Of a DNA stretch of 64,000 nucleotides, positions 6,637 through 57,900 are shown in pieces; the stretch's first letter is position 1; each line of letters opens with the position of its first letter. The position numbers and the translations under genes are program-made. The DNA is from an uncultured virus (IMG/VR IMGVR_UViG_3300046721_000269) (lineage: Duplodnaviria; Heunggongvirae; Uroviricota; Caudoviricetes). Under the pieces are notes generated by a model that saw only the letters and a list, made by a program, of their open reading frames with translations, was not told the DNA's origin and ran no database searches. Where the stretch lies: IMG/VR virus record IMGVR_UViG_3300046721_000269; one strand, written 5' to 3'.

Positions 6637-6969
6637 TCAATCGTGGGCGTCACCGTTGTCGATGTAGCCATGCCAGCAGCCGCCGACCTGGATGGAGCGG
6701 GCCTGGTTTGGGGGCATGGCATTGAGGGTGAGGTCTTGGAGGCTGGTCCCGTCGAATTTCCAGCGGCCGGGGCCTGGAAGTTTGGAGTCGGGGACACCGC
6801 GGCCAGCGGCCCAAAGGATGAGGGAATGGCAACCGACATTCGTGCCGAGTTTCCGGAAGCAGCCAGGGCAAAGGAGGATGAGGCCTTGAGCTTCGGGGAG
6901 CGAGTCGACGAAGGTGTAGCTGTTGTCGGTGATTTTGACGAGGCGGGCTTCGAGGTCGGAGAGTTTCAT
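6637..6969 (-). CDS. DUF6527-like Cys/His metal-binding protein
   Basis: CPGC...H...W.FDG...LTL...SI...CWHGYIDNG pattern. Confidence 0.6.
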   Translation of the reverse strand: MKLSDLEARLVKITDNSYTFVDSLPEAQGLILLCPGCFRKLGTNVGCHSLILWAAGRGVPDSKLPGPGRWKFDGTSLQDLTLNAMPPNQARSIQVGGCWHGYIDNGDAHD

Positions 6970-7968: not shown

Positions 7969-8719
7969 ACTCCCTGAACCCTAGCTGTGCGCGGCGCTCG
8001 AATTCAACTCTTCTTGTCTGTTTGAACCAGGAAGGCTTGAGTTCGACCTCGATGCCTCGGTCAAGGAGGCCGGAGCCGACGGCGACCAGGTCGAGCGAGC
8101 AGAAATCCTCGTAGACGCGCCCGGTGTGCAGCATGCGCTGTTGTTCGGCCCATTCGGCTTCCCTCATCCAGGGGCCGAGCTCGGGGAATTTCTTGTGCAG
8201 GATTTCCTTCCAGTTGACGCGGTAGGGGCAGACGTGGAGCTGGAAGAGGAAGAAGTCGACGGGCTTCTCCTGGTTGATGAGCCAGTTGGCTGCGTGGGTG
8301 CAGAACAGGCGCCAGAGGCGCTCGAGCTCTTCACGGGATTGGACGCCGGTTTCGTTGGACTGCCAGAGTGCATCCAGGAATTCATCGCGATCGGCGCGGA
8401 GGGCGGGATCGGTTTGGGGCTGTTGCGAGAGGCGCGGTTGTTCCCAGGAGAAGAGCAGCTCGGGATGTTGGGGCGGTTGCGGGTCGGCATGGACGGCCAG
8501 GTCGACGGCTCGAACGAACCATTGGCCGGGGTGAGCTTCCTCGGTCCAGGCGCAGAGCTCGCGGCACTGGGCGGCGAAAGCGTTTTCCTGGGCGAAAGAT
8601 AGTTCCATGGCGTGGGCGAAGCGGTAGGTCAGGGGGCGTTGGGAGACGACCTCAACGAGGATGGGGATAGTCCAGAGGACGGGACGCCTGCCGCGGAGCT
8701 TCCAAAGTTCAGATGCCAT
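7559..8719 (-). CDS. hypothetical protein with Pro-rich C-terminal tail
   Basis: 386 aa ORF; TTGCGC-17-TAAAAG promoter 6 nt upstream. Confidence 0.65.
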   Translation of the reverse strand: MASELWKLRGRRPVLWTIPILVEVVSQRPLTYRFAHAMELSFAQENAFAAQCRELCAWTEEAHPGQWFVRAVDLAVHADPQPPQHPELLFSWEQPRLSQQPQTDPALRADRDEFLDALWQSNETGVQSREELERLWRLFCTHAANWLINQEKPVDFFLFQLHVCPYRVNWKEILHKKFPELGPWMREAEWAEQQRMLHTGRVYEDFCSLDLVAVGSGLLDRGIEVELKPSWFKQTRRVEFERRAQLGFREYAERIVGSLRRRVSISLRIFMAWYTGARRPSAADFKGRLHGDIRVLGDFSKPPVLASRRVKAALDAAILPGPAPQSPTQPNQIDAPQPPTPLPPLPTLQQIPQDVRHTWPNLCGPPRQPPPPGLLVPAPAQEPDPV

Positions 8720-8767
8720 AAGAAACTTTTACTCAGAGCTTGCAATGGGCGCAAGGCGCTGTAAAAC
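8720..8767. promoter_or_regulatory. overlapping divergent promoters
   Basis: minus: TTGCGC(8749-54)-17-TAAAAG(8726-31); plus: TTGCAA(8740-45)-16-TAAAAC(8762-67). Confidence 0.55.
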
Positions 8768-8784
8768 AGACGGCACCAACGAAC

Positions 8785-9882
8785 ATGAGCAACGAGAACT
8801 TTGAGATAAGGGACGCTTCATCCTCGGTTATCATTCCAGTAGTTACTTCCTACGGGCCATCCGGGTCGGGCAAGACGCTCTCGATGATACTGTACGCGCG
8901 GGGGATAGTGGGTCCCAAGGGTCGGATCATCGTAGTGGACGCGGAGAACAAGCGGGCATCGATCTTTGCCGACCAGGTCCCCGGCGGTTACAAGGTGATT
9001 GATCTGGCCCCGCCGTTCACCCCCGACCGCTATTACGCGGCGATCATTGCAGCTCAAGAGAGGTCGGATATAACGGTGGTAGACTCGATGTCGCACGAGT
9101 GGGAGGGCCCGGGGGGCGTGCTGGATTGGCAGGAGCAAGAGTTGGATCGGCTGAGCAAAGGGGACGCGGACAAGGCGCAGCAGGTCAAGATGCTGTCCTG
9201 GTCGGCGCCCAAGCAGTCGCACAAAAGGCTCATGCGCTGGCTGGCGGCGACTTCCAAGCCTTTGATTCTCTGCTTTCGGGCGGAGCACAAGACGCATTTC
9301 GATGAGGACACAAGCCCGCCGTTGCCGGACGCGGTAGCGCGGCAGGCGGCGCGGGAGGAGCGGCGGCGCCGGACGGTTGTGAAGGACCGGTTCACAACGC
9401 CGATTGGGGCTAAGGAGCTGGTATGGGATTGCCTGATAACCTACGAGATGGTCCGTAAAGAGCGGGAAGGGCTCGAGCAGGGGGGCTTTGTGATAGCGCG
9501 CAAGTGGACGCACCCGGATTTGATGCGGGTATTGCCCAAGCCGGATGAGCAGGTGTCGATTAAGCACGGGGAAGCGCTGGCGGCATGGTGCTCGCGAGCG
9601 GCAGTGAAGGCGCCGCCGGCAAGTCCTCCTGCCGGCAGCAAGCCGGTTGAAGGAACGCGGACGGTTAGTGAACGCGATCGGCTCCTGGGTGAACTTCGGA
9701 GCCTGACCCGTGAACAGAGCGGTTGGGATGGCAAGGCGGCATCGTGGCCGCTGGCAAAGCAGCGGATGCAACAATGGCTCATAGACGAGGGGGTCCTGGG
9801 CGACACACAGATTTTGGACACGCTGACGGACGGTGAACTGGCCGGAGCGGTCCAGGCAACGAAAACGAAACTGCAAAAATGA
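8785..9882 (+). CDS. AAA-family ATPase, Sak4-like phage recombination protein
   Basis: Walker A GPSGSGKT, VDAEN, Walker B VVDSMSHEW.G.GG.L. Confidence 0.8.
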   Translation: MSNENFEIRDASSSVIIPVVTSYGPSGSGKTLSMILYARGIVGPKGRIIVVDAENKRASIFADQVPGGYKVIDLAPPFTPDRYYAAIIAAQERSDITVVDSMSHEWEGPGGVLDWQEQELDRLSKGDADKAQQVKMLSWSAPKQSHKRLMRWLAATSKPLILCFRAEHKTHFDEDTSPPLPDAVARQAAREERRRRTVVKDRFTTPIGAKELVWDCLITYEMVRKEREGLEQGGFVIARKWTHPDLMRVLPKPDEQVSIKHGEALAAWCSRAAVKAPPASPPAGSKPVEGTRTVSERDRLLGELRSLTREQSGWDGKAASWPLAKQRMQQWLIDEGVLGDTQILDTLTDGELAGAVQATKTKLQK

Positions 9883-11276
9883 AACCACTCAGACTCAAGA
9901 TCCATAACGTGGGCCTCATTGAGGACACGGTCATTGAAATCAACAAGCCGCTGCTGCTGTTCTATGGCGACATCCGGCAAGGGAAAACCACGATACTGAA
10001 TTGCGTGCGTTGGGTCCTGGGGGCGTCGAACTGGCCCGAGGACATCATCAGGCACGGGGCGGACGAGGCGTCGATAGAGTTCGAGTTTGATGGCGGGGTA
10101 GTGTCGCGCTCGTGGTACCGGAGCAAGGCCGGCAAGAGCAAGGGGACGACTCAGGCGCGGGAGACGACCTTCATTCGAAACGGGCGCCCGGTGGAGAGGC
10201 CGGCCAGCGAGTTATCGCGGCTGGTTAATCCGTTCCTGGTGGACCACGAGTATCTGAAGAAGATGAGCGAGGGGGAGCGCCGGCAATACTTCGTGGACTC
10301 TTTCCCGGTGGACACCAAGGACCTGGATACCGAGTCATTCAACAATGACAAGGAAGCGACCGAGCTGCGCGCCAAGGTGCGCGGGTATGGCCAGATCGAT
10401 TTGACGCCCGTGCCGGCGACCAGCACGCCGGACTTGAAGCGGCAACTGTCCGAAGCCAGGGCGGCGCATGCTGCTGGAATGACCAAGCTGGTCGAGGAAC
10501 AGGAGCAGCTCGAGAGGAAGTGGCGGACCGAGTCTGAGCTGATTGAGGATGAAAACGAGAAGCGCCGCGAACAGAACCGGCGGAACGCAGACGCTGAGTC
10601 ATACCTTCGGAGCATCAAAGCGCGGATAGCCGAGCTCGAGGCGGAGGCCGAGAAGGCGATCGCGGTGATGCGGGAGAACCCGGTTTTAGCGCTGGCACCA
10701 AAGCCGGAGAAACCTGAGGCGCTGGTCCAGCTTGCGCGCAAGGCTGCGGATTACCCGATAACAACGCCCGAGCTCGAGAAGCTGCAGGAAGCGGTAAACG
10801 AGTCGACGCTAAACGATGAGCGGCGCAAGGTGTTCCTGGCGAACAAAGCCAAGGCCGAGCAGAAGGAGCGGGAAGAGAAGCGCGTCCAGGAGTTGGAGGC
10901 CCGCGCGCGAGAAATCAAAAAGGAGAGGGTTGCCCGGTTAAGCAAGTGCGCGGAGGTAGTCCCCGGGCTGTCCTTTGCCGAGTCGGGGCAATTCACTTTC
11001 GAGGGGACCGACGCGGGGATGCTGAGCACATCGCAGATAATGCGGCTCTCGGAGATGCTGAGCGCGCTCTACCCTGAGGGGTTTGGGCTGAGCCTGATTG
11101 ACCGGGCTGAGAGCATGGGCAAATCCATCTTTGAATTCGTGGACCGGGCCAAGGCGGAGAAAAAGACGATCCTGGCAACCATCGTGGGCGAGGCGCCCGC
11201 GGCAGCGCCGGCTGAGGTCGGAGTCTTTGTGGTGGACCAGGGAAAGGTCACGTCCAAACAAACGGAGCTGATATGA
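9879..11276 (+). CDS. SMC/Rad50-like ATPase with central coiled coil
   Basis: GDIRQGKTT, long coiled coil, LSTSQ signature, LIDRAE Walker B. Confidence 0.75.
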   Translation: MKPLRLKIHNVGLIEDTVIEINKPLLLFYGDIRQGKTTILNCVRWVLGASNWPEDIIRHGADEASIEFEFDGGVVSRSWYRSKAGKSKGTTQARETTFIRNGRPVERPASELSRLVNPFLVDHEYLKKMSEGERRQYFVDSFPVDTKDLDTESFNNDKEATELRAKVRGYGQIDLTPVPATSTPDLKRQLSEARAAHAAGMTKLVEEQEQLERKWRTESELIEDENEKRREQNRRNADAESYLRSIKARIAELEAEAEKAIAVMRENPVLALAPKPEKPEALVQLARKAADYPITTPELEKLQEAVNESTLNDERRKVFLANKAKAEQKEREEKRVQELEARAREIKKERVARLSKCAEVVPGLSFAESGQFTFEGTDAGMLSTSQIMRLSEMLSALYPEGFGLSLIDRAESMGKSIFEFVDRAKAEKKTILATIVGEAPAAAPAEVGVFVVDQGKVTSKQTELI

Positions 11277-11521
11277 ACGCAAGCGAGCTGAGAGTTGGGA
11301 TGCGCGTCAAATCGCTCGTCGAGTTTAGCGGTGTGCCGGCCGGGAGTCAGGGTGTTGTGGACGAGGATTACGGAACTGGCTTCATGGTGGCGTGGGACCT
11401 GCCAGGGCACCCACTGCCGGCGGGCTATACCACCTACGAAGGAGTCCCGGTCATCCAAAGCGGCATAACTCGGGACGGTTTCGACAAGAAAACAGAACTT
11501 CAATATCTGGAGGCCGTATGA
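11273..11521 (+). CDS. hypothetical SH3-like small protein
   Basis: 82 aa, ATGA coupling, GGAG RBS. Confidence 0.65.
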   Translation: MNASELRVGMRVKSLVEFSGVPAGSQGVVDEDYGTGFMVAWDLPGHPLPAGYTTYEGVPVIQSGITRDGFDKKTELQYLEAV

Positions 11522-11718
11522 AGCTGCGTTACAAGTGCCGCCGTTGTGAAAAGGTGTTTTACGCCGGCGAGGACATGCCACAAAAGGAGGCATGGGACGA
11601 GCTGCTTAGAGCTCTTGTTGCGGGGGGGTCATCGAACCTTATGACTATCCATCCCTGTGACGGCGAGCGCGAGAGCACCAAAGCCTTTGGGCTTGCCGAC
11701 CTACAAGGAGCATCATGA
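11518..11718 (+). CDS. small zinc-ribbon-like protein
   Basis: MKLRYKCRRC...HPC...GLADLQG; GGAGG RBS, ATGA overlaps. Confidence 0.6.
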   Translation: MKLRYKCRRCEKVFYAGEDMPQKEAWDELLRALVAGGSSNLMTIHPCDGERESTKAFGLADLQGAS

Positions 11719-12713
11719 GCCCGTCACAATTCTTTGAGGTCAATCCTCTCAAGTTCGTCGACGGCCAGATCGTCGCGGAGAACGTCACAACCGAGGCTTA
11801 CCTCCGCCAGGACCCAAAGACAGGGAGGGGCCATCCTGACTTTGTCGTGAGCCGGTCGGAGCTGATGCTCTTCATGTCGAACCCTCAGCGCTGGATCCGC
11901 GGCTACGAGTTCAAAGACACGGCCGCGACCGAATGGGGCACGCTGATTGACTGCCTTGTCACGTGCAAGGGCGAGTTCGAGAAGCGCTTCGCCCTGACGC
12001 CCGAAACGTGCGAGGCCACAAAGACGATGAAGATCGTCAAAGAGGGAAAGGCACGGGCCGGCGACCAGGTCCCCTGGAGCCCAACGGCTACGGAGTGCAG
12101 GGAATGGAAAGAGGAGGCGGAGTCCCGTGGCTTGCAGATCGTGACTCGCAAGGAAATGGAGCAGGCCAATCAGGCGATCGCCGCGCTAAAGTCGGACGCC
12201 TGGATCGGGCACATGCTGGCTGAGGCTTCCTTCCAGGTCATGTGCATCGCGACCTATGAGGACAAGGACACAAAGGTCAAGGTCCCGCTCAAGTGCCTCG
12301 TAGACATTGTCCCATCGATGAAGGGGCAATACGCCAACGGCCTGACCGACTTCAAGACCGCCAGGACGGCATCGCCCAAGGAGTGGGAGAATGCCTGCAG
12401 GAAGCAGCACTACGACGTGCAGGGCGCGATGAGCCTGGATATCTGGTCCGCGTGCAAACCCAAAGAACGCTGGTGCTGGTATCACATCATTCAGGAAAAC
12501 GAATTTCCATGGCAACCCGCCCGCCGGTATATGTCCGATACGATGCTGGCGATGGGGCGGATCGATATGTGGCAGGCGCTCAAACGCTACTGCCGTTGCC
12601 TCAAGGAAAATCAGTGGCCGAGTTGGGATGACGAAGGCCCGCAAGTCGTCTACGGCTTTGGCCCGATAAACGCCAACAAATACCAGGCCGAGGAATACGG
12701 CCTCGGGCAATGA
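11715..12713 (+). CDS. PD-(D/E)XK exonuclease, RecE/ExoVIII-like (DUF3799-type)
   Basis: SRSEL, GTLID, KCLVD...DFKT, YDVQGA motifs; recombination module context. Confidence 0.8.
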   Translation: MSPSQFFEVNPLKFVDGQIVAENVTTEAYLRQDPKTGRGHPDFVVSRSELMLFMSNPQRWIRGYEFKDTAATEWGTLIDCLVTCKGEFEKRFALTPETCEATKTMKIVKEGKARAGDQVPWSPTATECREWKEEAESRGLQIVTRKEMEQANQAIAALKSDAWIGHMLAEASFQVMCIATYEDKDTKVKVPLKCLVDIVPSMKGQYANGLTDFKTARTASPKEWENACRKQHYDVQGAMSLDIWSACKPKERWCWYHIIQENEFPWQPARRYMSDTMLAMGRIDMWQALKRYCRCLKENQWPSWDDEGPQVVYGFGPINANKYQAEEYGLGQ

Positions 12714-12725
12714 AAGGACCACCTA

Positions 12726-13051
12726 TGGCACAAGCACAAGGCCGGCTGAATGGAATTACCGGCGAGCAAGTCCCGGAAATCGAAGAGGCAGCGGCGGACC
12801 TGCGTAAACTCCAAAGCAAACGCGCCAAGTTAGCAGAGCAGGAAGAGAAGGCGCGCCTGAACCTTTGCGAGGTTCTCAAAAAGCACGGGTATGGCCGTAA
12901 GAAGTACATGTTCGATATCCTGGACGATGAGACGGGGAAAGAGGTCAAGCTCGACGTGTTCACCGAGAAGGTAACGACCGAGCGCGCCCGCGTCCGGATC
13001 CACAAGGACGAGAAGAAGAAAGAGGGCGAGTCCGAAGAGGCGGGCGATTAG
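12726..13051 (+). CDS. hypothetical basic coiled-coil protein
   Basis: ORF 12710..13051; alternative start MAQAQ. Confidence 0.6.
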
Positions 13052-13287
13052 TAGCTCGAGTTGTTACCGTAGCGCAGTGAGCGCACTACTCCGCCACGCG
13101 CCATCTTCCGGCGACCTCCCCTAAGCCTGCCGAGAGTCTGAGCAAGCCGCGCGCGCCTTCCGAGGGTCCCGCCCTTGGACGCCGCGGCTGCGAGTTTTTT
13201 AGCGGGGATTTTCTTCCCCATTGGCACCCCAAGTTGTTTGTGGAGCGCGCCAGGGTGTTTAATCGCGCCTTTGATCCAGTTCGCCAT
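13048..13287 (-). CDS. small basic phage protein (WIxxAIKxPGALH family), probably virion-associated
   Basis: MANWIKGAIKHPGALHKQLGVP..KIP..KL..A...GRRARLAQTL; own promoter TTGACA-17-CAAATG 6 nt upstream. Confidence 0.75.
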   Translation of the reverse strand: MANWIKGAIKHPGALHKQLGVPMGKKIPAKKLAAAASKGGTLGRRARLAQTLGRLRGGRRKMARGGVVRSLRYGNNSSY

Positions 13288-13342
13288 GTGGGCCATTTGA
13301 GTTATTAACAGTGGGGTGTCAATAACTTTCTAAAACTTAGGC

Positions 13343-13506
13343 TTCACAGATCGGATAGGAGGCATATAGTCCACGCCACAGTCACGGATGATTGTGGGCG
13401 CACTGAAACGTCCGATAATTTTTCAACCGATACTTTCGGCTCTCCGGTTCCGTGCGGGATGTCGCCCGACTTCCTTTTCAGCCACGGGACCGGCAGAGCC
13501 GTTTTT
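13343..13506 (+). promoter_or_regulatory. promoter plus structured attenuator-like leader upstream of the replication initiator
   Basis: TTCACA-16-TATAGT (13343-13370); long hairpin 13437-13501 followed by TTTTT; upstream cacgga, gggcg, ctgaaa complementary to stem/loop. Confidence 0.55.
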
Positions 13507-13511
13507 GAGCG

Positions 13512-14285
13512 ATGCGAAACGCGGAATGTGCTCTTTGGGCGTTACGGCAGCGGGTCGGACGCGGAAGCGACAAGTTAATACTCGCGGTCCTGGCCAGCTT
13601 CTCGGACGATAAAATGCAGGCGTGGCCATCACAGAGCACCATTGCACTCGAGGCGGAGGTTGACATAAAAACGGTCAGTATGGGGCTGCGGCGCATAGAG
13701 GCTGCTGGACTGATCAAACAAGTCGGCACAGTAGGGCTAGGGACTAAGGTTTGGAAGCTGCTTCAGCGGGTAGCGCCACCACCGGAAACGGTGGACGATT
13801 ATGTACTTACTTCTATACCTGTTAATAAGGAAGGGGGTACGGGGGAAACCACAAAAACCACACAGGCCGAGTTGATTCCCAGGCCAAGGAAGGACAGGGG
13901 CACGCTCGAGGATGTTCAAAAGCTCTGCCTGGAACTTGGATTGCCCGAATCCGATGCCACATGGTTCTTCTACAAGTGTGAGGGCTGCGGATGGGTAAAC
14001 GCGAAGCAGCCGATCAAGGATTGGAAAGCGACAATTCGAGCCTGGAGGGCTGGCGGATTTTTCCCGAGCCAAAAGACCAACGGCGCGAGCAAACATTTCT
14101 CTGAGACGGACGCCCGCCGACGCGAGCAGATGGCTCGGAGTTCACAAGTACCACTAACCACGAAAACCGTTATGAGATATGGAAAGGGTCAAAACAATGG
14201 ATCCGGAGAAACTAACAGATGCGAGAGTACCCCGCCGTTACCGGGAACAGATACAGGGACACCAGGGCCAGGGACCGTGGCATGA
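13512..14285 (+). CDS. replication initiator, N-terminal winged HTH
   Basis: KLIL..LA...D....WPSQ.TIA......TV...L..LE.AGLI; C-terminal GW...IKDWKATIR.W; precedes DnaC-like gene. Confidence 0.75.
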   Translation: MRNAECALWALRQRVGRGSDKLILAVLASFSDDKMQAWPSQSTIALEAEVDIKTVSMGLRRIEAAGLIKQVGTVGLGTKVWKLLQRVAPPPETVDDYVLTSIPVNKEGGTGETTKTTQAELIPRPRKDRGTLEDVQKLCLELGLPESDATWFFYKCEGCGWVNAKQPIKDWKATIRAWRAGGFFPSQKTNGASKHFSETDARRREQMARSSQVPLTTKTVMRYGKGQNNGSGETNRCESTPPLPGTDTGTPGPGTVA

Positions 14286-14757
14286 CTGCGGCAGAGACTT
14301 CTTTCAAAGGCTCGGCAAGAAAGGCGTCCTGCTCGCGGCCATCGGCAAGAGCGGCGTGGGCAAAACGCAGCTTGCGGCCAACATCATTTACAACGTGGTG
14401 CGGCATACCGGAAGGTCCTGCCTCTACACGACCGCTCGCGACTTTTTCCTCGACCTCAAGGCGTGCTACCGCGCCGACGGGGAGCCTGAGCGGGAAGTCA
14501 TTGGGGAGTACTGCAAACCATCGTTCCTCGTCATCGACGAGTACGACAAGCGAAGCGGAAGCCAGTGGGAGGACGGAATGCTCGAGCACGTTATCAACCG
14601 CCGTTACGGCATGATGAAAGACACGATGCTCATAGCCAACTACAGCCAGCCGGCATTTGAAGAGGCGCTCGGGCCGGCCAACCTCTCGAGGTTGAACGAG
14701 GGCGGGCTCATGGCGGTATGCGACTGGCCAAGTTTCAGGGAGGCTGTGTGTGGCTGA
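14179..14757 (+). CDS. DnaC/IstB-like ATPase (helicase loader)
   Basis: GKSGVGKT, LVIDE, INRRY, SRL.E, W.SFR. Confidence 0.85.
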   Translation: MERVKTMDPEKLTDARVPRRYREQIQGHQGQGPWHDCGRDFFQRLGKKGVLLAAIGKSGVGKTQLAANIIYNVVRHTGRSCLYTTARDFFLDLKACYRADGEPEREVIGEYCKPSFLVIDEYDKRSGSQWEDGMLEHVINRRYGMMKDTMLIANYSQPAFEEALGPANLSRLNEGGLMAVCDWPSFREAVCG

Positions 14758-16127
14758 TCCCGGAGAAGCTGGCCCGACCCTGGTTAGCCTGTGTCGCGGG
14801 GTCGGATTACTCGACGAAGCCGTTAAACTGGTTTTTCCCGGAGCAACGACTCTATGTAGCGCGGAGTGGGAAAGCTACGCCAACGCCGTGTACCTGGCGC
14901 GGATGGAAGAATCGAGCGTGGACGCCCATCCTATTTGGATCGGAGATATTGCCGACCTCGAGCTTTCCGCGCTTCGTCGCCTTGTCTATATCCTCTGCGC
15001 GAGCCTCCCTTGCACGCCGTTCAGTTATGCCGGACTACGCACCGGAAACGACGATCCTCGAGCTTTTGGAGATGGCAGCGGACCAGCTCGACATTGTCTC
15101 CGGCTCATTGCCGAGTGTTGCCCCGCCCTGGTGTTCTTCGAGAACGCGCCAGCTTGGGTTAGAGGGCTTAGGGACAAGCGAAGCGGAAAAATCAACTATC
15201 CGTTCCTGGCTTTCGGAGCGGAATTATGCGGAATGGGTTACGAGCTCGTTGAACCGGTCTTTATCTCTGCGGACGATGTTAAAGGAGCGCACGAGCGCGA
15301 AAGAGTCTTTGTGCTGGCCTACCGCCACGGCCCGGATGGACTCCGGTGCAAACAATCGTTATCAGCGTGGCTGCGAGAAGGCAGGCAGGCAGTTGCAGGA
15401 AGAGGCGGCGAACTGGCAGACCCCGCGATCCAACGAGGCGGGAAACTTCACCAGGGATCACGGGGTACCGGGAATGGAACGGGACACGCTCTCGGGCCAG
15501 TCGGAGAAGTGGGCGACCCCGGACGCGCCGACGGGCGGCAGCAGGACCAGGAGCGACGAGGCGATGCAGCTGGGGCTTCACGGAACGGGAGCCAAGATGC
15601 AGGTGACACTGCAGGACCAGGCCAGCCGCTGGTCGACGCCCAGGGCGAGCGAGGGCGGTCCGGACTTTGCGAAACCGGAGCGGAGCAACACGGGGATGGG
15701 CTTGCCGGCACAAACGGCGAATTGGCCGACGGTCACAACAATGGACGGGGAGCAGGCCGGCGGGAGGGGCAGGAGGGAAAACCGGGGCAAGACAACACTC
15801 AGCCTCGAGACGGAGAACTGGCCGACGTGTCAGGCCAGGGACTACCGGAGCGGGGAGACGCGAAAGGACTACGGAAACTCCCGACCGTTGACGGAGGCAG
15901 TCCTCGAATTTTCGCTCCAGGGCCAAAAGATCCCCGATGGCAAGACATCCTCGAGTCCTGCCCGTGGCTCGCGCCCGCGGTTAAACCCGGCTTTCGCGTT
16001 ATGGTTGATGGGCGCCCCATGGTTCTGGACGAGGCCCGAATCGATCAGCTTCGGTGCACAGGTAACGCAGTTGTGGCAATTCAAGGCGCGTGTGCTCTTG
16101 TGGAGCTTCTTCGGAGAGCCGGAATAG
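14748..16127 (+). CDS. overlapping alternative-frame partner of the C5 MTase (WxTP repeats + motif IX)
   Basis: 1.4 kb open frame; six W[PQAS]T repeats; RLNPAFALWLMGAPWFWT; GTG 14748 shares the RBS with GTG 14750. Confidence 0.7.
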   Translation: MWLIPEKLARPWLACVAGSDYSTKPLNWFFPEQRLYVARSGKATPTPCTWRGWKNRAWTPILFGSEILPTSSFPRFVALSISSARASLARRSVMPDYAPETTILELLEMAADQLDIVSGSLPSVAPPWCSSRTRQLGLEGLGTSEAEKSTIRSWLSERNYAEWVTSSLNRSLSLRTMLKERTSAKESLCWPTATARMDSGANNRYQRGCEKAGRQLQEEAANWQTPRSNEAGNFTRDHGVPGMERDTLSGQSEKWATPDAPTGGSRTRSDEAMQLGLHGTGAKMQVTLQDQASRWSTPRASEGGPDFAKPERSNTGMGLPAQTANWPTVTTMDGEQAGGRGRRENRGKTTLSLETENWPTCQARDYRSGETRKDYGNSRPLTEAVLEFSLQGQKIPDGKTSSSPARGSRPRLNPAFALWLMGAPWFWTRPESISFGAQVTQLWQFKARVLLWSFFGEPE

Positions 16128-16132
16128 CATGA
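14750..16132 (+). CDS. DNA cytosine-5 methyltransferase, alpha-type polypeptide (motifs I-VIII, X)
   Basis: SLCRGVG (I), LPCTPFSYAG (IV), FFENAP (VI), HERERVF (VIII), CTGNAVV (X). Confidence 0.8.
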   Translation: MADPGEAGPTLVSLCRGVGLLDEAVKLVFPGATTLCSAEWESYANAVYLARMEESSVDAHPIWIGDIADLELSALRRLVYILCASLPCTPFSYAGLRTGNDDPRAFGDGSGPARHCLRLIAECCPALVFFENAPAWVRGLRDKRSGKINYPFLAFGAELCGMGYELVEPVFISADDVKGAHERERVFVLAYRHGPDGLRCKQSLSAWLREGRQAVAGRGGELADPAIQRGGKLHQGSRGTGNGTGHALGPVGEVGDPGRADGRQQDQERRGDAAGASRNGSQDAGDTAGPGQPLVDAQGERGRSGLCETGAEQHGDGLAGTNGELADGHNNGRGAGRREGQEGKPGQDNTQPRDGELADVSGQGLPERGDAKGLRKLPTVDGGSPRIFAPGPKDPRWQDILESCPWLAPAVKPGFRVMVDGRPMVLDEARIDQLRCTGNAVVAIQGACALVELLRRAGIA

Positions 16133-17556
16133 GACGTCAAGCGTCCGAGCCGTCACCGGACCGATTGCCGCCGAACTCACCAGAGGCGGAAGAATCGGCC
16201 CTGGGGTGCATTCTGATGGACGAAAAGCGCTCAGTGGAGTGCATCAGTCTTTTCGTTGAAAAGTTCGGTCCGAGCGCGCCGGATGCCTTCTACGACATGC
16301 GGCGCCAGACGATTTGGACCGCGATGCTCGAGCTTTACACGGCCGGGATCCGGGTCTACGTCATCAGCCTTGTCGATTATCTGCGAGACAAGCAACTGCT
16401 CGAGCAGGTCGGCGGGGTGGTTTACATTGCGCAGCTCGCGGACGTGTCCCCATCACCGGAAGCGCTGCCGACCTTCATTGATATCCTGATTGAGAAGCTG
16501 AGGCGCCGGCAAATGATCAAGGCCTGCGTTCAGGCCGTATCAACGCTCTACGAGGACGCGGAGGCGGACAGCGCCATGGACACCGTTGAGCGGTCCGTGA
16601 TGGAGGTCCGCAAAATTGGCGCAGCGGGACAACTGAAGCCGATCAAGGAAGTAGTTCAGGGGGCGATCGCGAGGATTGAGGACTTCCACCAGCGCAAGGG
16701 CATGCTAGTCGGGCTGTCTACCGGGTTTGCCGACATCGATAAAATGACCGGCGGGCTCGAGAATGGGACTTACAACATCATCGCGGCGCGCCCGAGCATG
16801 GGCAAGACCTCCCTGGCAATGAACATCGTTGAGCACGTGGCGATCGATCAACAGCTCTCGGTCGGAGTATTCAGCCTGGAAATGACGGTTGAATCGTTGG
16901 TGATGCGGATGCTTTGCTCCCGCGCCCGCGTGAACCTGCGCAATGTCCGTGACGGGTTCCTGGCCGAGCGGGACTTCCCGAAGCTCACCGGAGCGGCCGG
17001 CAAGATTGCCGTGAGCAACCTTTTTGTGGATGACGCCAACGGGCTCAGTGTGATGGAGCTGAGGGCTCGAGCGCGCCGGATGAAGATCCAGCACGGCATC
17101 AAATTATTAGTGATAGATTATGTGCAATTACTTATAGCCACGGTGAACGGCAGGAGGCCTGATAAGCGCGAGCGGGAAGTCTCCGAGGTTTCAGCCGGCA
17201 TCAAGGCACTTTCGAAGGAGCTCGCGATCCCGGTCCTGGCGATATGCCAGCTCAACCGCGAAATCGACCGCGCCAAACGAAAACCCGTCCTGGCGGACCT
17301 GAGGGAAAGCGGGAGCCTCGAGCAGGATGCAGACCTTGTTGGCATGTTGTACCGACCGCAAATCGACGATGAAAACAGAGAGCAAGATGAAGCTACGCCG
17401 GTGTGCCTGGACATAGCCAAGCAGAGGAATGGGCCTTCCGGTGAAGTCAAGCTGACCTTCCTCAAACCCTACACTCGGTTCGAGTCAGCGGCCAGGGTGA
17501 GTGACGAGGACATGCCAAATGACCAACAACACGACCTTGACTACCATGAGCGGTAA
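16129..17556 (+). CDS. dnaB: replicative DNA helicase DnaB
   Basis: PPNSPEAE, AARPSMGKT, FSLEM, IDYVQL, QLNRE, DLRESGSLEQDAD, AKQRNGP. Confidence 0.95.
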   Translation: MRRQASEPSPDRLPPNSPEAEESALGCILMDEKRSVECISLFVEKFGPSAPDAFYDMRRQTIWTAMLELYTAGIRVYVISLVDYLRDKQLLEQVGGVVYIAQLADVSPSPEALPTFIDILIEKLRRRQMIKACVQAVSTLYEDAEADSAMDTVERSVMEVRKIGAAGQLKPIKEVVQGAIARIEDFHQRKGMLVGLSTGFADIDKMTGGLENGTYNIIAARPSMGKTSLAMNIVEHVAIDQQLSVGVFSLEMTVESLVMRMLCSRARVNLRNVRDGFLAERDFPKLTGAAGKIAVSNLFVDDANGLSVMELRARARRMKIQHGIKLLVIDYVQLLIATVNGRRPDKREREVSEVSAGIKALSKELAIPVLAICQLNREIDRAKRKPVLADLRESGSLEQDADLVGMLYRPQIDDENREQDEATPVCLDIAKQRNGPSGEVKLTFLKPYTRFESAARVSDEDMPNDQQHDLDYHER

Positions 17557-17577
17557 ACGGTAAAAGGAGCGCCATCA

Positions 17578-18156
17578 ATGAAACGTGAGCCGCAAAGTCC
17601 GATCGCCAAGGCAATCCACTCGCTGATAAAGGGAACGTGCATCAAGCCCGAGACACTCGACGTTATTGAGACACTCAGGGACAATAAGCTCGAGCTCGTA
17701 TTCCTGCCGGATATGTGCGACTTCCGGATCCTGATCGGCAGCAAAGGCAAGACAATCACGGCGCTGCAGCACGTTGCTCAGGAAATGGGGCGCGGATCCG
17801 GACTCGAGGTCGGCCTGGAGTTGCGGGAATCCTACATCGGAGAGCGCCTTCCGATGAGCGACTTTGAACTAAATCCCGGATTCAAAGGGCCGGAAATGCT
17901 ACCCATCCTCGACCCGTTTTTAGAGCTGCTCTTCGACCCACTCCCAACGGTCCGATTCGAGGACAAAGGCGAGAAGCTCTACATCATCATCGACGTGCCG
18001 GAAGAAGAGCTGCCGCTAATCAAGGCAATGGGCGTAGCCTTTTACCCTTACGGGTTCAGGCACGGACGCAGGCTGAGCTTCCGGATCGTCGACTACCACG
18101 AAACTGAAAATGAGACACCAACAAACACCGACGGCGTTTCCCCTGGCGTGGCCTAA
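17578..18156 (+). CDS. KH-domain RNA-binding protein (KhpA-like, with degenerate second unit)
   Basis: DFRILIGSKGKTITALQ GxxG loop. Confidence 0.65.
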   Translation: MKREPQSPIAKAIHSLIKGTCIKPETLDVIETLRDNKLELVFLPDMCDFRILIGSKGKTITALQHVAQEMGRGSGLEVGLELRESYIGERLPMSDFELNPGFKGPEMLPILDPFLELLFDPLPTVRFEDKGEKLYIIIDVPEEELPLIKAMGVAFYPYGFRHGRRLSFRIVDYHETENETPTNTDGVSPGVA

Positions 18157-18700
18157 TGGCTGGCCAAAAACCGAGGACTACAAAAAGCAGGACGGGAGCT
18201 TCAAAACCGAGACGCCCCGGGCCCTGGCAAACCTCAAGCGAGAGCTCGACCTGATGAGGGCAAAGAACCTCGTGCTCTCGAGCAATTACACCCTGGGCGT
18301 GGAGAATCCCAAAGATTCCGGAGTGGTTGCTTATTTCGAGTGGGAGCAGACGCAGATGGCGATCCCCTGCGACCGTTACCGCCGGATAGCGCACAACATC
18401 CAGGCCATTGCCCTGACCATTGAGGCCATGCGCGGGATCGAGCGGTGGGGGGCCAAGCACATGATTAAGGCGATGTTCTCCGGCTTCAAACAGATCGGCA
18501 TGGGCCAGCATCACGAGGAGCCATTGCTCAAGTGGTGGGAGATTTTGAAATGTCCCCCTGAGTCAAATGGGGCGACCATCACCGAGGCTTACCGCCGGCG
18601 GATCAAAGAGGTTCACCCCGACAAGGGCGGCACCCAGGAAGAATTCATAAACGTGCAAGCCGCCTACGATCATGTTAAAAGCCTTGGCTACGTCCAATGA
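18110..18700 (+). CDS. phage J-domain (DnaJ-type) protein
   Basis: FPLAWP.GWP N-terminus, CDRY...N..AI..TIEA.R, C-terminal HPDKGG. Confidence 0.85.
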   Translation: MRHQQTPTAFPLAWPNGWPKTEDYKKQDGSFKTETPRALANLKRELDLMRAKNLVLSSNYTLGVENPKDSGVVAYFEWEQTQMAIPCDRYRRIAHNIQAIALTIEAMRGIERWGAKHMIKAMFSGFKQIGMGQHHEEPLLKWWEILKCPPESNGATITEAYRRRIKEVHPDKGGTQEEFINVQAAYDHVKSLGYVQ

Positions 18701-19128
18701 CCTCCGAAGATGAATACAGAGCAAAAGGATTTGTTAAGTGCAGTGATGGAAGCTGGTCCCATCCGTCACGTGTTGCACGTAAAGGGGATAACCCCCTCAT
18801 TCAAGACGCAAAAGACAGCGTACGGTTGGATAGACAAAAAGAGTGGGAAGATATTCGCAAGGCCAGCCACGCTCCCCGAGCACAAAGAGTGGATGCGCAA
18901 AACCGTCCTAGATTTCGCGTCACAATTACTTACCGCTTCGCAGATCGACGAGTCCACGACCTCGATGGATGCACGTCGACGCTCCTTGATTGCCTCATTG
19001 CCACACGACGATACTTGGACGGCGATCCCCGAGCAGATTTCAAGGGGAAGGCTGTGCGAACCAGGCGAGGAGCCAGGAGCGGAGATACTGATCGAACTGA
19101 TAGCGTGAAAGGCCCTGTGCCATTTTAA
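18697..19128 (+). CDS. rusA: RusA-like resolvase, frame carrying the DxD...D helix
   Basis: RVTITYRFADRRVHDLDGCTSTLLDCL. Confidence 0.5.
   Translation: MTSEDEYRAKGFVKCSDGSWSHPSRVARKGDNPLIQDAKDSVRLDRQKEWEDIRKASHAPRAQRVDAQNRPRFRVTITYRFADRRVHDLDGCTSTLLDCLIATRRYLDGDPRADFKGKAVRTRRGARSGDTDRTDSVKGPVPF
18710..19108 (+). CDS. rusA: RusA-like resolvase, overlapping frame carrying N-terminal strand/helix and C-terminal DD + strands
   Basis: LHVKGITPSFK...T..HKEW...; LPHDDTW..I...GAEILIE. Confidence 0.5.
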   Translation: MNTEQKDLLSAVMEAGPIRHVLHVKGITPSFKTQKTAYGWIDKKSGKIFARPATLPEHKEWMRKTVLDFASQLLTASQIDESTTSMDARRRSLIASLPHDDTWTAIPEQISRGRLCEPGEEPGAEILIELIA

Positions 19129-19132
19129 CCCT

Positions 19133-19360
19133 ATGAGCGTCCCGATAGAGAAAATCACCGAGGAACGGCTGGCCCGATGGAAACGGCGCATGAAGGAATC
19201 GCACGCTACGCCGATCGTCCTGATGGGCGTGGGGCACGATCACAAATGCGGTGAGATTGTGGTCTGCATCCCTGAGGACGTGGATAATGCGCTTGTCCTG
19301 GCCACGCTCTGCTTTGCGGTCGAGCAGCTCGCCCCGGGCACAATCCGGAAAGCAACGTGA
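19133..19360 (+). CDS. hypothetical protein
   Basis: 75 aa, GTGA overlap with next gene. Confidence 0.55.
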   Translation: MSVPIEKITEERLARWKRRMKESHATPIVLMGVGHDHKCGEIVVCIPEDVDNALVLATLCFAVEQLAPGTIRKAT

Positions 19361-51946: not shown

Positions 51947-54900
51947 ATGGCGCTGTCATTCGACGAAATCGATCAAATCGAAATTCCACAAGCTCAGAAC
52001 AGCCGAAGCCTAGCGGGCAAGCTCCTGAGCCCCGACGAGATTGACTCCCTGCCGGCAGGAGGCAGGCCTCAGCTCTCCCCCCAAGAGATAGATTCTATCC
52101 AGAATCCAATCAGATTCCGTTCCGTCGACACAACGGTTCCAGGAATGCGGACGACACGGGGCGGACCACCACTTCAACTACCGGAGGAGGCAGCAAGCCC
52201 GTTTGACGAGCTCGAGGGGCCAGTCTCGACCACCGCGGTCGGTGCGGCTCGGACCGCCGGCTCAACCCTCGGAGCGGCCGGGAAAGGGGTAGCTGCGATC
52301 GGGGAGGATGTCCTTGAAGCGCCAACACAGATAGCCGGTTATCAGCAAGGGTTTCGCAATATCCGCTCACTCGGCCGCGTGAAGTCGGTCGGCAATTTGC
52401 TCGGCGGAATCGAGCAGGAACAGCCCACGCCGTTCGAAGAGGAGACACAGCAGACGACCGGCATACCTCGATTTGCCAGGACGGCAACCACGTCTCTGCT
52501 CGAGATGGAGCCACGGCTCGCGGCCGGGTTTGCCCTCGGCGCCGCAGGCGTGCCGGCATCGCTGGCGGCAGCAGCGCCGATGGTTGCGACGGACAAGGGC
52601 GAGCTCGACCCGATTGGCGCGGCGATCGCGGCGGGGCTTCCTGGGGTGAGCAGCCTGGGTGAGGACGTTGTCGCGAAGCTGCTCTCAAAGGTCCCGGTAT
52701 CGAAAGTTGCGATCGACGTGCTGTCCAATGACCCGATGAAGCTCAAAGGCAAAATCACCCAGGAGCTCGGGGGCATCCAGATATCAAGCGATCAGTTCAG
52801 GCACTTCCTTGAGTCCGGCGGCGGGTTTCTCGCGGCGAATGCGTACCTCGCTGCCGCTGAAGTGGCGCGCAACCCGGAGCGGATCGGCAAGATGACCGCG
52901 GCTGAGGCAAAGCAATACGCGCTTGATTTCGTGGCGCAGAACCTTGCGCCGGCCCTGCTCGGGTTCATTCGAAGCGGAGAGAGTCGCACGATTGGGGAAC
53001 TCCGGCCGGGATTGCAAAAGGAAATGCGTCCGCCGATCGAGGAGGCCGCGCAGTTCATTCAGCAGGCCAACGAGCGGATCCAGGCCAACGGCGATTTGGA
53101 TACTCAGCTCAAGACCCATTTGACCCAACGCCAGGCCGCAGGCGCGGGCCAGCACGAGATAGACGCCATCCAGGCGGCAATCGACAACAACGAGAAGGCG
53201 ACTCGGGACCTCCGGACGAGGGCTCGGTATGCCAACGACCAGTACACCCAGGATGAATGGGACGCATGGAAGGGACAACAACCCGGCACGGCGCAGCCGG
53301 CTCAGCAACCACCTGCAGGCGGGGCGCCGACCGGCCAGCAATTAACACCAGGAGACATAGATGCCATTAACCCAAGCGGGAACGTGGAGGGCGTTCCAGG
53401 ACAACAAACGGGAGTTGCTCCGGTCGGGCAAACGGGGACCCCAACAGGCGGAGGCGATAGCGTTCCGAGTGATGAAGGCCAACGGGGGACATCCGCCCCC
53501 GCCGTCCCCGCACAGCAAACTGGGGCGCCAGCTCCGAGCGCGCCGCCGGTTCAGCCAGGGGGGGCTGGCCCGAGCGGTGAACGGGTTCCGCCAGTCGTTC
53601 CTACGGGTGCGCCCGCGCAGCCTCAGACGCGAAAGCCAGAGGTAGCCAACCTCGGGACCGGAACACAGCTAAACAATCTCGGGGACCCCTTGGGGACGGC
53701 TTACTACGCTACTCCGGAGGATTACGCTAAATGGACCGACCTACAGAAAAAGCTCAAGGCCTCGGTCGACCGCATGCTCGAGCTTTACAAGTCCAATGAG
53801 CGCGGGGAGCAGTGGGACAAGGTTCAAGAGCAATACAGGGCGCTCCAGCAGGAAAACGAGGACCTTAAAAACAAGTATGGAGGCATGCCGCCTGCAGCGC
53901 CAAAGGTGGAAGTCAAAAGCCAGGGCGCGACCAATCCCAATCCGACGCCAGCGCAGACCGAGGCGGGCAACTATCAGAAGCGGGAGCTGAAGATTGAGGG
54001 ATTGCCGGCCATCAGCATTGAGAACGAGGCCGGCGGAATCCGGAAGAGCAAACCGGGCGCGCCACCGTGGCAGGTGCAAATGCCAGTGGCCTACGGCTAC
54101 TTCAAAGGGACGAAGGACAACACGAAGGAGCACGTCGACGTTTACGTCGGCCCAAATCTGCAAAGCGATAAAATCTTTGTTGTCGACCAGCTCGACCCCG
54201 ACACGCACCTATACGATGAGCCTAAGGTGCTGCTCGGGTTCAACGCGCCAGGCGAAGCACGCATGGCCTATGCCGCATCATTCTCCGACGGAAAGGGGAA
54301 TGCCCGGTGGGGAACAGTTACGCAGATGACCAGAGAAGCGCTTGCGCAGTGGCTGAAGAAGCCAACCCGCATAGCGGAGGAGGGCGGACAAGGATCCGAG
54401 GAGTGGCTTGCGAGTCAGAAGAAAACGGCAGCAAGAGTTGGGGTTCCCCTCTCTCAATGGCTGGCTATGTCGAAACAGACAAACCTGGAGCAGCTCGGGC
54501 AATGGGGGGTAACTCAAGCTCAACTGCTCGAGCGCGCTGCAACGAAACCCGCCGAAAGTGGAACGAAAGGGCCTGAAAGTGGAACGAAAGTCCCGGAAAC
54601 TAAGCCGGAACGCAAAACCGGCGACCTGGAAGGACTAACCGAGGAAGAGCTCGATTCGATGCTGGACACGGCGTCGACGGAGGCAAAGAAGCCTGAAAAA
54701 CCGAAAGCTCCGAAGGCTCCCAAAGCGCCAGTACCGGTAAAGCAGCGGGAGTGGCGCGAGATTGGCAAGAACGCGGCCGGGGACAAAGTCTACGAGGACC
54801 GCAACGGCGTCCGCTCGATCGTGCGTGCGGGTGTGAGAGTTTCCGAGGCGGTAGAGCTCATCCCGACCCGAGAGGGCATTAAATTCGCCCGCCCAACCGA

Positions 54901-57900
54901 GGAGAGCCCCGAATTTGCAGTAACCGAATGGAAGCCGACGATTGAGCCATGGCCGGCTGAGGCACCGAAGAAACCGCGCTCCCTGGGCACAAAAGGACCC
55001 GCTCCGGCCCCGAAACAAGCTGAGGCGGGCACAAAAGGGCAGGAAAAGACGCCAGCGGAAATCATTGCCGAGGCAGCAAAGCAGGGTGTCACTGGCATTG
55101 ATGAAGCGGTCAAAGGCCTGCACAAGCTCTTTGGCGGAGGAAAGCACACCGGGACCGGCGGTCCAGGCTTCGACGAGGAGACATATAAGGAGGCCAAGCC
55201 TCATTTCGAAGCGGCTTACGACAACTTCAAAAAAGCAGGCCGCAGCTTTGCGGACTTCCTCCGCTACATATTCAAGGAGTTCGGGGACCGGGTCCGGCCC
55301 TACATCAAGCGGTTCATCCAGGAGCTACAGGCATCCGCAAAAGCCCCGATTGACACCGGCGCGCGCGGGCCGCAACCTCCTATAGGTGCTAACGAACGAA
55401 CAGAAGGCACAGGCGGTCCTGGCGTCCCTGGAGGAGAACAGCCCCCAACTGCTGGCGCAACTGGCGGAGAAGGGGGAACTGGTGTCACGCCTGCAGGACA
55501 GGGTCAACCGGTTCAACCTGGAGTACGTCCGCCTGATGAAGGGGCAACCAGCGGATCAGGATCCCATGGTGGAGGAGCGCCTATTCCCGATGCTGACGGA
55601 GTTCCCAAAGAGCCAGAACCAAAAACCCCTGAGTCGTCAACAGCGGGAGTTGGTCCAGAAGCAACTGGACAAGTACCTAGCCAGCCTCCCGCGCCCGTTG
55701 AGCCAGCCGGCCCAATCGAGGTAGACGATCGCCGTCCTACCAACTTCTATTTCGAGAAGGAACACGCCCCGACAGGTGCTGTCTCCCGAATCGAGGCCAA
55801 CGTCAAAGCCCTGAAGCTGGTCAAAGAGCTTCAGGCTAACAACCGTTTCCCGACCGATGACGAGCGCGCCATACTTGCGGCCTGGTCCGGATGGGGCTCG
55901 TTCAAAGAGTTGTTTGCCGAGGGGCGTGCCGAGGCCCGGGAATGGGATGCCGGTTGGGTTAAGCGCTACGGCAGGTTCTACGACCAGCTAAAGAAGATCC
56001 TCAGCCCGAAGGAGTTCATTGCTGCAGCAGAGTCCAGCGCGTTCGCCCACTACACAGGCCAGGACATCATCAAGCCCATGTGGGACCTGGTTAAGCGTCT
56101 TGGCTACAAGGGCGGCCGAGCTTTGGACCCGAGCGCCGGCAAAGGCTCTTTCAGTGGCTTCATGCCGTCGGATGTTCAGGCGGCAACCAACTGGACGCAG
56201 ATCGAGCTTGAGCCAATAACCGGTGCGATCCTGGGGTATCTGTTCCCGCGGACCGACGTGAGGGTTCAGGGCTTCGAAAACGCCAAAATCCCCAACGGCT
56301 ATTACGAGCTGGCGATTACGAACGTCCCGTTCCACGAGGTCGGGCCCGGGAAAGAATATCCCGACCTCAACCTGCACAACTACTTTATCGCCCGCATGCT
56401 GGACAAGGTCCGGCCCGGTGGCTTGGTAGTGGTCATCACCAGCGCGAATACGATGGAGGCGCAGTACCAGCAAAGGAAGTTCCTCGCCGGCAAGGGTGAG
56501 CTGGTCGGCGCCATCCGGCTCCCCAACAACGCGCATAAGGAGGTCGGCGGGACCGAAGTGACAACGGACATTCTTGTATTACGGAAACCCGACGGCAAAC
56601 CGTTCGAGGCGCATCCCTGGGAGAATCAGGTCCGCGTTACGATGGGAGACGAAGAGGCACCGCTCAACCAATACTTTGCCACGCACCCCGAGATGGTCCT
56701 CGGGCGAAACGCCATGGAGGGCAAGCTCTACAGGAAGGGCGGCTACACCGTCCAGCCGACGCCAGGGGCTTTGCTCGAGAAGATAGCAGCGGCGATCCAG
56801 AAGTTCCCGCAAGACATTTTCCAGCGGGGGGAACCCGAGGCGGAGATTGAGAAGCAACAGACCGCGCTCGAGGACAACTCCCTGGTGCTGGACGATAAAG
56901 GCCGGGTGATGAAGGCCAAGGGGTATGAGCTCGCGATGCCCGATTGGGACTCGACCAGCAAGCCACTGGTGGACCGGGCAAAGGATTACATCGGGCTCCG
57001 TGACGTGCTACTCCGTCAGTATTTCATGGAGGGGGACCCGGAAGCGACGGATGAGGCTCTCGAGGCCAACCGCGCCGCACTCAAAAAGGCCTACGAGAAG
57101 TTTGTTAAGAAGCACGGCCGGTTAAACGAGATAGCGCGCAAGCTCCGCCACTTGGAGGACGAGCCCTACTATTACACGGTGATGGGGCTTGAGAACGTGC
57201 GGGAGGTTCAGGACCCCGAGGATCCGGCAAAGACAAAGACCTTGATTGAGCCGGCGGACGTGCTGACCAAGCGGGTCAAGACGCCGGACCGACCGCCGGC
57301 CCACGTCGACACGGCCACGGACGGCCTTGGTGTCTCGCTCGCCTTCAAGGGTCAGCTCGACATGGAGTTCATCAAGGCCCTCACCGGCCTGGACGAGACA
57401 GCGATCGAGGCAGACCTGATCACAAACGGCGGGTGCTTCAAGGACCCGGATACCGGCAAAGTCGTCACGGGGACCGATTACCTTTCAGGGGACGTGCGCG
57501 ACAAGCTCGCCAAGGCGATGTTCGCGGCCAAGGAGTCGGACGAGTTCAAGAGGAATGTTGAAGCCCTCCGAGCCACGATCCCCGAAACTATCCCGTTCGA
57601 GAAAATAAGCACCACGCTTAACGCCCGGTGGACGCCGCTCTCAGTGCTCAACACCTTTGCAGAGCAGGTGATAGGTCTAGCGAAAGGCTCAATCCGGTTT
57701 GTGCCGGTCATCGAGGAGTTTAGCTGTAAGCAGAACGAACGCTTCGCCCTGAGCAATCTGGCCAAAACCCAGTGGTCGACAGCGGATATGCTGGCTACTG
57801 AGCTGCTCAATCACGCGCTCAACTTCAAGCGCGCAACGATCACCAAGACGGACAGCGACGGGAAGCGCTACACGGACGAGGACGCCACGGCCCTGGCTAA

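Follow-up and report, generated by a model that had tools for sequence, protein, structure and literature searches.

Can the apparently disordered linker of a giant phage protein hold a second, smaller gene read in another frame? This question is raised by a 64,000-nt stretch of DNA from an uncultured virus of the Caudoviricetes (IMG/VR record IMGVR_UViG_3300046721_000269), the whole of which is referred to here as the window. One gene of the window encodes a polyvalent virion protein, and the first low-complexity linker of this protein is overlapped, on the same strand and in the +1 frame, by a nested open reading frame (ORF). The initial annotation, made without database searches, had proposed that this ORF is a real internal gene. 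We propose that it is an embedded, diverged member of the PHROG 2423 family of small phage proteins, with its own Shine-Dalgarno (SD) sequence and ATG, in the gene of a giant virion protein that would be ejected, and that much of the apparent linker may be this small gene with its reading shifted one base upstream. We judge it very probable that the embedded sequence is homologous to PHROG 2423. The explanation taken as a whole, including a domain still translated and functional in the window, is finely balanced.

PHROG 2423 similarity inside the giant gene

The nested peptide matches phrog_2423 from its first methionine, with residues 1-36 aligned to positions 1-35 of the 52-position profile (E 1.1e-3 with all 94 residues, 2e-4 with the first 43; PHROGs carries no curated cut-off). 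The best control among 66 other alternative-frame ORFs of the giant gene gave a PHROG E value of 0.031. A hidden Markov model (HMM) of the family, representing 218 distinct domains, scored the nested ORF at 24.9 bits and the runner-up among 1681 six-frame window segments at 5.3 bits. The nested ORF is the sole family match within the 64 kb, and the motif M-P-L ... N ... E-L ... G ... Q-A-x-A-I-A has a single occurrence in all six frames. The peptide had been described as a common small phage protein and this is borne out, since the family is abundant and homologues exist in phrog_2423, at at least 236 IMG/VR loci and in 163 isolate records. No Pfam or NCBIfam model matches the nested peptide, and canonical family members are also without a model in either collection. 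Word-index protein searches gave no match to the 43-aa or the 94-aa peptide.

Family members were fetched from IMG/VR by a degenerate DNA pattern in two scans. The pattern was derived from the MPL and QAxAIA of the query, so agreement at those eight positions is circular. The nested copy keeps M1, P2, L3, N15, G23, K24 and QAEAIA and, unlike MPL and QAxAIA, N15 (217/218 domains) and G23 (211/218) lay outside the selection pattern. Random peptides with MPL and QAxAIA fixed (n = 5000) had a mean score of 8.8 with a standard deviation (sd) of 3.7 and a maximum of 25.9, none reaching the observed 27.5. Next, we compared host-synonymous recodings, in which the host protein was fixed and codons were redrawn from phage usage (n = 20,000). 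These averaged -2.6 (sd 6.1, maximum 16.6) and none reached 27.6. Therefore, the similarity is not a by-product of the host amino-acid sequence and is written in its silent positions.

The good ribosome-binding site and ATG reported in the initial annotation are present, and two stops of the nested frame lie closely upstream (53343-53345 and 53358-53360). The start signals are mildly unusual. The SD depends on two A-ending codons with phage usages of 19% and 18%, an SD core of at least 5 nt precedes 2 of the 63 out-of-frame ATGs in the giant gene, and SD and ATG arise together in 4.9% of the recodings. The host frame across the nested ORF is open but reads as Gly-, Pro-, Gln- and Thr-rich filler, also as first described. 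The GC content of the phage window region is 0.55-0.63, and the host-frame GC at third codon positions (GC3) is 0.50-0.63 in the linker, compared with 0.74 over the whole gene. A test by GC3 and codon log-likelihood was dropped because linker composition confounds it: over the domain the +1 frame looks no less coding-like than the host frame, but this is equally so in the linker upstream of the ATG.

Table 1 Features of the giant gene and its nested ORF in the window, and nested family members in other phages.
Feature	Position	Strand	Basis or remark
Host gene, polyvalent virion protein of >4018 codons	51947..64000	+	Runs off the window end
First Gly/Pro/Gln/Thr-rich host 'linker', about residues 443-568, holding the nested ORF	53273..53650	+	Host-frame composition
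SD-like AGGAGA, 5-nt spacer to the nested ATG	53350..53355	+	Host codons CCA GGA GAC (Pro-Gly-Asp)
Nested ORF, 94 codons and stop (ATG at 53361, TAG at 53643-53645), +1 frame of the host gene and wholly inside it	53361..53645	+	Coordinates confirmed
PHROG 2423-like domain, residues 1-43, predicted helical hairpin, ending in KANGG	53361..53489	+	Family match, null tests
Nested ORF tail, residues 44-94, Pro run then Arg-rich	53490..53645	+	Composition, host-frame comparison
Host InPase, the next domain downstream of the linker	53951..54358	+	Pfam profile match
G001 nested gene, 77 aa			Host of 1707 aa from first Met, with LPD38; complete genome with terminal repeats
G003 nested gene, 45 aa			Host truncated at its 5' end, homologous to the G001 host (40% identity, E 3e-87)
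G006 nested gene, 42 aa			Host of 3636 aa
G007 nested gene, 56 aa			Host of 2088 aa, with DUF7178, and ART-PolyVal below the curated cut-off
G008 nested gene, 51 aa			Host of at least 1599 aa, with RadC

The host gene belongs to the polyvalent protein class: it is giant and multidomain, with polyvalent-type domains and a virion gene neighbourhood. Pfam profiles locate InPase (PF18823, residues 669-804, E 1.5e-35) and Helicase_C. Upstream of the gene are matches to tail and virion-structural PHROGs, and the window also carries terminase genes. The linker sits between the host N-terminal domain (N-domain) and InPase, and this arrangement in one chain is kept in full-length relatives of 4600-4730 aa. 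An exhaustive profile-free search returned 9052 proteins at E <= 0.001, mostly via InPase, and the whole N-domain, linker and InPase layout is shared by few giants, P0004 (4724 aa), P0005 (4627 aa) and P0006 (4732 aa).

Comparison with P0006, for which one alignment spans residues 4-809, indicates where the host reading is constrained. Host-frame identity is 13/29 just before the ATG, in the SD region, and 21/44 over the nested domain, with 17/72 before the linker, 13/51 over the nested tail and 27/102 after the linker. The folded N-domain has 70/230 and InPase 79/136. Thus, the 'filler' is better conserved than the folded N-domain only over the SD and the 43-residue domain, as dual coding predicts. 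Together with the recodings, this is indirect evidence that the nested frame of the window may be under purifying selection.

The other relatives were assessed from their protein sequences. A dynamic programme over synonymous codons, with two of the three bases of each nested codon fixed by host residues, returned the best family score that a protein sequence could encode, which is an upper bound and not a reading of observed DNA. A stop-free solution was found at 2333 of 2792 candidate sites in 151 related proteins (median -20.9, 99th percentile 22.5). The top four sites, P0005 (70.7), P0004 (58.3), P0016 (52.5) and the window (44.6), all lie in the pre-InPase linker. The gapped upper bounds are 73.5, 57.6, 68.2 and 51.3 bits, respectively, with 38.4 bits for P0006. 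The protein sequences of the closest relatives appear compatible with near-canonical nested copies.

No close relatives were found by DNA or tblastn searches in an isolate phage collection, and the first 818 host residues gave no related loci in IMG/VR or metagenome contigs. The N-domain alignment returned nothing from genome contigs, nor did the P0005 N-terminus and P0006 from IMG/VR. The window stretch or close variants were listed for 24 metagenome runs of soil, rhizosphere and roots, drawn from 24 studies; two of these may be the source, and no RNA run was among those listed. Of ten variant sites in contigs across 52700-54300, nine fall at third codon positions of the host frame, as expected if the giant protein is under purifying selection outside the linker. 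The nested ORF shows no variants because, among four runs, a single contig (X5) covers 53402-53617, and it is identical to the window there. Contig X5 also agrees with a G7 homopolymer in the linker (53558-53564), the sole in-register X_XXY_YYZ heptamer of the nested frame.

The PHROG 2423 family and its nested members

A family-pattern ORF is present in 118 of the 120 loci of each scan (236/240 in total), among the matches listed, to which the counts of members by length and of Gly-Gly below also refer. L151, one of these 236 loci, is probably a false positive. The family consensus is MPLKKGxSxKxxSxNIxxExxAGKPQKQAVAIA, followed by a Lys/Arg-rich tail. The length is 60 aa or less in 160 of 217 distinct members, the usual stand-alone size being 41-60 aa, and the median Lys and Arg fraction of the tail is 0.5. 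AlphaFold2, run on a 124-row family alignment, predicted an extended N-terminus and helices at residues 9-22 and 27-40 (pLDDT 92), a confidence driven by the alignment. A Foldseek search of this model against the PDB gave nothing at E <= 0.001. The window peptide shares with the family the MPL start, Asn15, Gly23, the Q-A-x-A-I-A helix and the predicted two-helix hairpin. It differs in a phrog_2423 score of 20-22 bits, in non-family residues and in its length of 94 aa without a Lys-rich tail.

We searched isolate phages by tblastn with a canonical member and obtained 163 records, from phages of Acinetobacter, Pseudomonas, Caulobacter, cyanophages and others. The matches are annotated as hypothetical or lie under 'head maturation protease'. 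In cyanophage KBS-S-2A the gene directly follows a MuF-type head morphogenesis gene, between the portal and major head protein genes, and in phiCbK it is found among tRNA genes. Stand-alone members have 67 flanking ORFs, of which 34 match a PHROG and 27 have a functional category. Head, packaging and connector genes make up 21 of these 27, portal being the commonest. In-frame N-terminal fusions were also observed, to NUDIX and DUF2213 (L052), to DUF6321 and to a polyvalent protein of at least 1033 aa with LPD23 (L132). PHROG 2423, a widespread protein of about 45 residues with an invariant MPL start, normally stands alone in head and packaging modules, or heads head-maturation proteases and other capsid-bound proteins.

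The initial annotation had pointed to a Gly-Gly tag in the nested peptide. The residues are present but are a minor feature of the family, as GG follows QAxAIA within 18 residues in 11/160 short members, 7/24 medium and 20/33 long. This enrichment in long forms looks like a domain junction. By eye alone, the nested tail resembled a C-terminal 'GG...ARPQRF' motif seen in a few long members, and this likeness was dropped.

Two adjacencies were seen alongside. A NUDIX hydrolase is fused or adjacent to the family domain at L052, L055 and L086 in IMG/VR and in Burkholderia phages BCSR129 and Bm1. A nested copy or its shadow precedes InPase in the window, P0004, P0005 and P0016, a recurring adjacency to pyrophosphatase-type domains.

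The same nesting was found in five uncultivated phages (G001, G003, G006, G007 and G008; Table 1), with a frame offset of +1 in all of them. The five nested members match phrog_2423 at E 1e-17 to 1e-22 (62-78 bits), and an SD-like purine run lies upstream of each gene. The nested gene is the sole family copy in the genome records of G001, G006 and G007, the three records searched. In G006, a non-helical stretch of the host protein coincides with the nested gene. The constant offset is explained by reading-frame openness, since in 40/86 members with a GC content of 55% or more no stop interrupts the host-like frame anywhere in the small gene, as against 12/86 for the other frame, which is mostly closed in these members.

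The G001 and G003 genes allowed the two frames to be compared. They differ at 38 of 126 nt, 19 of these at nested third positions. The nested frame has 18 silent differences and the host frame 7, and identity is 29/42 residues for the nested peptide and 21/42 for the host reading. This excess of nested-silent changes indicates that purifying selection acts mainly on the nested frame. G001 and G003 show that the family can persist, nested and under selection, within polyvalent genes, and the same is strongly suggested for G006-G008. The hosts of these copies have no detectable relation to the giant protein of the window, so the arrangement recurs across different polyvalent proteins.

Some candidates were not counted as nesting. 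The 'host' ORFs of L247 and L248, and of their kin L152, L156, L188 and L191, are spurious Arg-rich frames. In L123 (= G002; 2-1672, GC 0.68) a terminase-like ORF is open through a canonical family gene into the next gene. The overlapped part is Arg-rich junk, and therefore this is probably spurious read-on or an assembly indel.

Divergence of the window copy and alternative readings

A set of observations weighs against a functional nested gene in the window. The window copy scores 25-28 bits with the family HMM. For the 217 other rows the median is 75.7 and the 5th percentile 61.6, and the single row in the range of the copy (26.6) is probably a false positive. It carries residues that occur in 0/218 domains at their positions: Ala at position 6, where Gly or Ser is found in 211/218; Lys at the site that follows the invariant Asn, where 216/218 have Ile, Val or Leu, the clearest deviation; Arg after Gly-Lys, where 187/218 have Pro; and Met where 125/218 have Ala. 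Beyond the domain, the ORF runs to 94 codons, and canonical nested copies stop after 42-77. The Lys and Arg fraction of its tail is 0.26, compared with 0.22 for the +1 frame of the whole gene, with no Lys-rich stretch.

The host gene supplies further points of this kind. In 52% of the host-synonymous recodings no stop arises over 93 codons of the nested frame, so the openness of that frame is uninformative. The nested ATG-CCA-TTA start overlaps the host motif L[ST]PxEIDx[IL], of which three N-terminal copies have nothing nested in them. Some of the conservation seen near the start may accordingly be due to the needs of the host protein. Upper bounds of other polyvalent proteins reach 30-50 bits at their highest, and some of these may be real cases too. 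Four related records (L251/L253, L252, L254/L255 and L256) are without a family ORF, and none shares the linker of the window. L251 (= L253) and L252, reached via the N-domain alignment, have Pro-rich linkers leading to a different domain. The IMG/VR record L254 (= L255, via P0016 and P0004) and the metagenome-assembled genome contig L256 (via P0005) have an unrelated N-terminal architecture.

Other features of the copy complete the comparison. It has Thr at position 8, where Ser is conserved and Thr is found in 8/218, and a one-residue insertion before the Q of QAxAIA. It lacks the size and basic tail of the family (94 aa against 41-60), and residues 44-94 are probably unselected read-on, an alternative-frame by-product by their composition and their low host-frame identity to P0006. 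Ranked by length, the nested ORF comes fifth or sixth among the 20 ORFs of 50 aa or more that the giant gene holds in alternative frames of the same strand, and ORF length or openness alone is not beyond chance for a GC-rich gene.

We observed the L[ST]PxEIDx[IL] motif at host residues 7, 31, 47, 404 and 470 (nt ~51965, 52037, 52085, 53156 and 53354), one copy overlapping both the nested SD and the ATG. It also occurs in the N-termini of P0005 and P0006 and in N-termini and linkers of the relatives P0004-P0006. In the L254 (= L255) record, a 4069-codon polyvalent gene (6947-19153) has a helicase/methylase core in common with that of P0016 and P0004; its N-terminal set differs, with a repeated 'DIFDEIAP' motif of its own, and a family ORF is absent.

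The linker may descend from a nested PHROG 2423 gene that is no longer functional in this phage, with its ATG, SD and residual similarity surviving because decay is recent or because the host frame, through the overlapping motif and the requirement for an open linker, slows change. We hold such a relic to be a serious possibility, though short of an even chance. It accounts for a score far below the family range and for the residues absent from all 218 domains, for the loss of the canonical stop and an unconstrained tail, and for a start that overlaps the host motif in a frame expected to be open by chance. However, the similarity sits on host-synonymous positions that would randomise quickly, as the recodings indicate, and SD and ATG are both kept. 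The peak of host-frame identity to P0006 coincides exactly with the SD and the domain, and the 64 kb hold no other family copy.

Chance resemblance is most improbable. An alternative-frame ORF in a GC-rich, Gly/Pro/Gln-rich linker might resemble a short, low-information family, with 'MPL' a side effect of the host Asp-Ala-Ile. E values of 2e-4 to 1e-3 are modest for a six-frame window against 38,880 families, MPL arises in 3% of host-motif recodings, and the ORF was originally picked by this very pattern. Against this, neither the pattern-fixed peptides nor the recodings reached the observed score, and the next six-frame segment falls far below it at 5.3 bits. Five other polyvalent genes carry the family nested in that frame, and the linkers of the relatives rank first to third of the 2792 sites for compatibility.

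A second isoform of the giant protein, MPL-headed and shortened, could arise if translation started at the nested ATG and slipped by -1 into the host frame before the nested stop; natural in-frame fusions exist (the polyvalent L132, the NUDIX and DUF2213 protein L052 and other long proteins), a -1 slip from the +1 frame restores the host frame and the G7 run at 53558 is an in-register heptamer, but the nested ORFs of G003, G006, G007 and G008 hold 0 such heptamers, the +1 offset is explained more simply by the closed other frame and a G run is not known as a classical efficient slippery site, so we regard this isoform as very unlikely.

Our reading of the nested ORF as a diverged PHROG 2423 member leans slightly towards a window copy that is still translated and functional, probably as a domain of about 43 residues with a dispensable tail. 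The initial proposal of a real same-strand internal gene is upheld by the family homology and by the same +1 nesting in five phages, and is weakened by a score below the family range and a by-product-like tail. Its further statement that standard gene callers would drop the ORF holds, as callers forbid a gene inside a gene. PHROG 2423 is therefore invisible to them wherever it is nested, and for the window locus the protein collections searched lack it.

Origin of the nesting, precedents and implications

We propose that the small gene is the older partner and that the nesting arose by read-through fusion of flanking genes across it, in the alternative frame that is most often stop-free in GC-rich phages. 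The stand-alone position of the family near MuF and portal genes, the permissive frame and the coincidence of the host 'linker' with the nested gene suggest this route. The small protein would be made by internal initiation on the mRNA of the giant gene. From its gene context and its fusions, it may act with capsid-packaged cargo, as a head-internal or cargo-loading factor. The broader view, that polyvalent genes grow by read-through fusion across a PHROG 2423 gene that is kept alive as the sole copy in the genome and supplies a head-associated factor with the ejected cargo, so that linkers can be pre-existing small genes, is put forward tentatively.

A second Gly/Pro/Thr-rich linker of the giant protein contains a 112-codon ORF in the +1 frame with a GTG start (55386-55724, plus strand; 54942-55385 is in the same frame), which reads like a natural helical protein and may be a further example. 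There, the +1 frame exceeds the host frame in codon log-likelihood by ~12 bits, the most extreme value in the gene. The sole database match is the same ORF called on a 1005-nt contig. The PHROG match is weak (E 0.11), and an atlas score of 0.87 is uninformative.

Known overlapping genes offer partial parallels. In the spanin genes of phage lambda, Rz1 is wholly embedded in the +1 frame of Rz and the two products are partners of one machine. The window resembles this in having a small gene with its own start signals inside a larger same-strand phage gene, in the +1 frame. It differs in that the small gene belongs to a widespread, usually stand-alone family found inside unrelated hosts, and in that the host reading is a low-complexity linker and not a folded domain. 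In phiX174, gene B lies in A and gene E in D, and in such classical overprinting the nested frame is a de novo newcomer. Common to both situations are one stretch of DNA, two frames, two proteins and less freedom at synonymous sites. Here, however, the nested frame belongs to an old conserved family and it is the overlapping host reading that looks like the newcomer. The unusual point is this polarity, with the conserved, older reading small and nested and the giant protein's reading a low-complexity newcomer.

Polyvalent proteins of phages and conjugative elements were described by Iyer et al. 2017 (PMC5512222). The window host is of this class, and other hosts of nested copies carry LPD38, RadC and a sub-cut-off ART-PolyVal. 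In the PMC5512222 text searched, 'overlapping' and 'frameshift' do not occur, 'nested' occurs twice, for a hairpin fold, and no second gene is mentioned in inter-domain stretches. At the level of listings, the literature searched describes neither the PHROG 2423 family nor a gene nested inside a polyvalent protein.

A single host-synonymous base change (GAT to GAC at 53360-53362) would remove the nested start. If the nesting is functional, a conserved head-module protein has been missed in phages where the nested gene is the sole copy. Some 'disordered linkers' of polyvalent proteins would then be shadows of a second gene and not spacers, which changes how such proteins are cut into domains, and read-through fusion across a small gene would be a testable route for assembling giant anti-defence cargo proteins.

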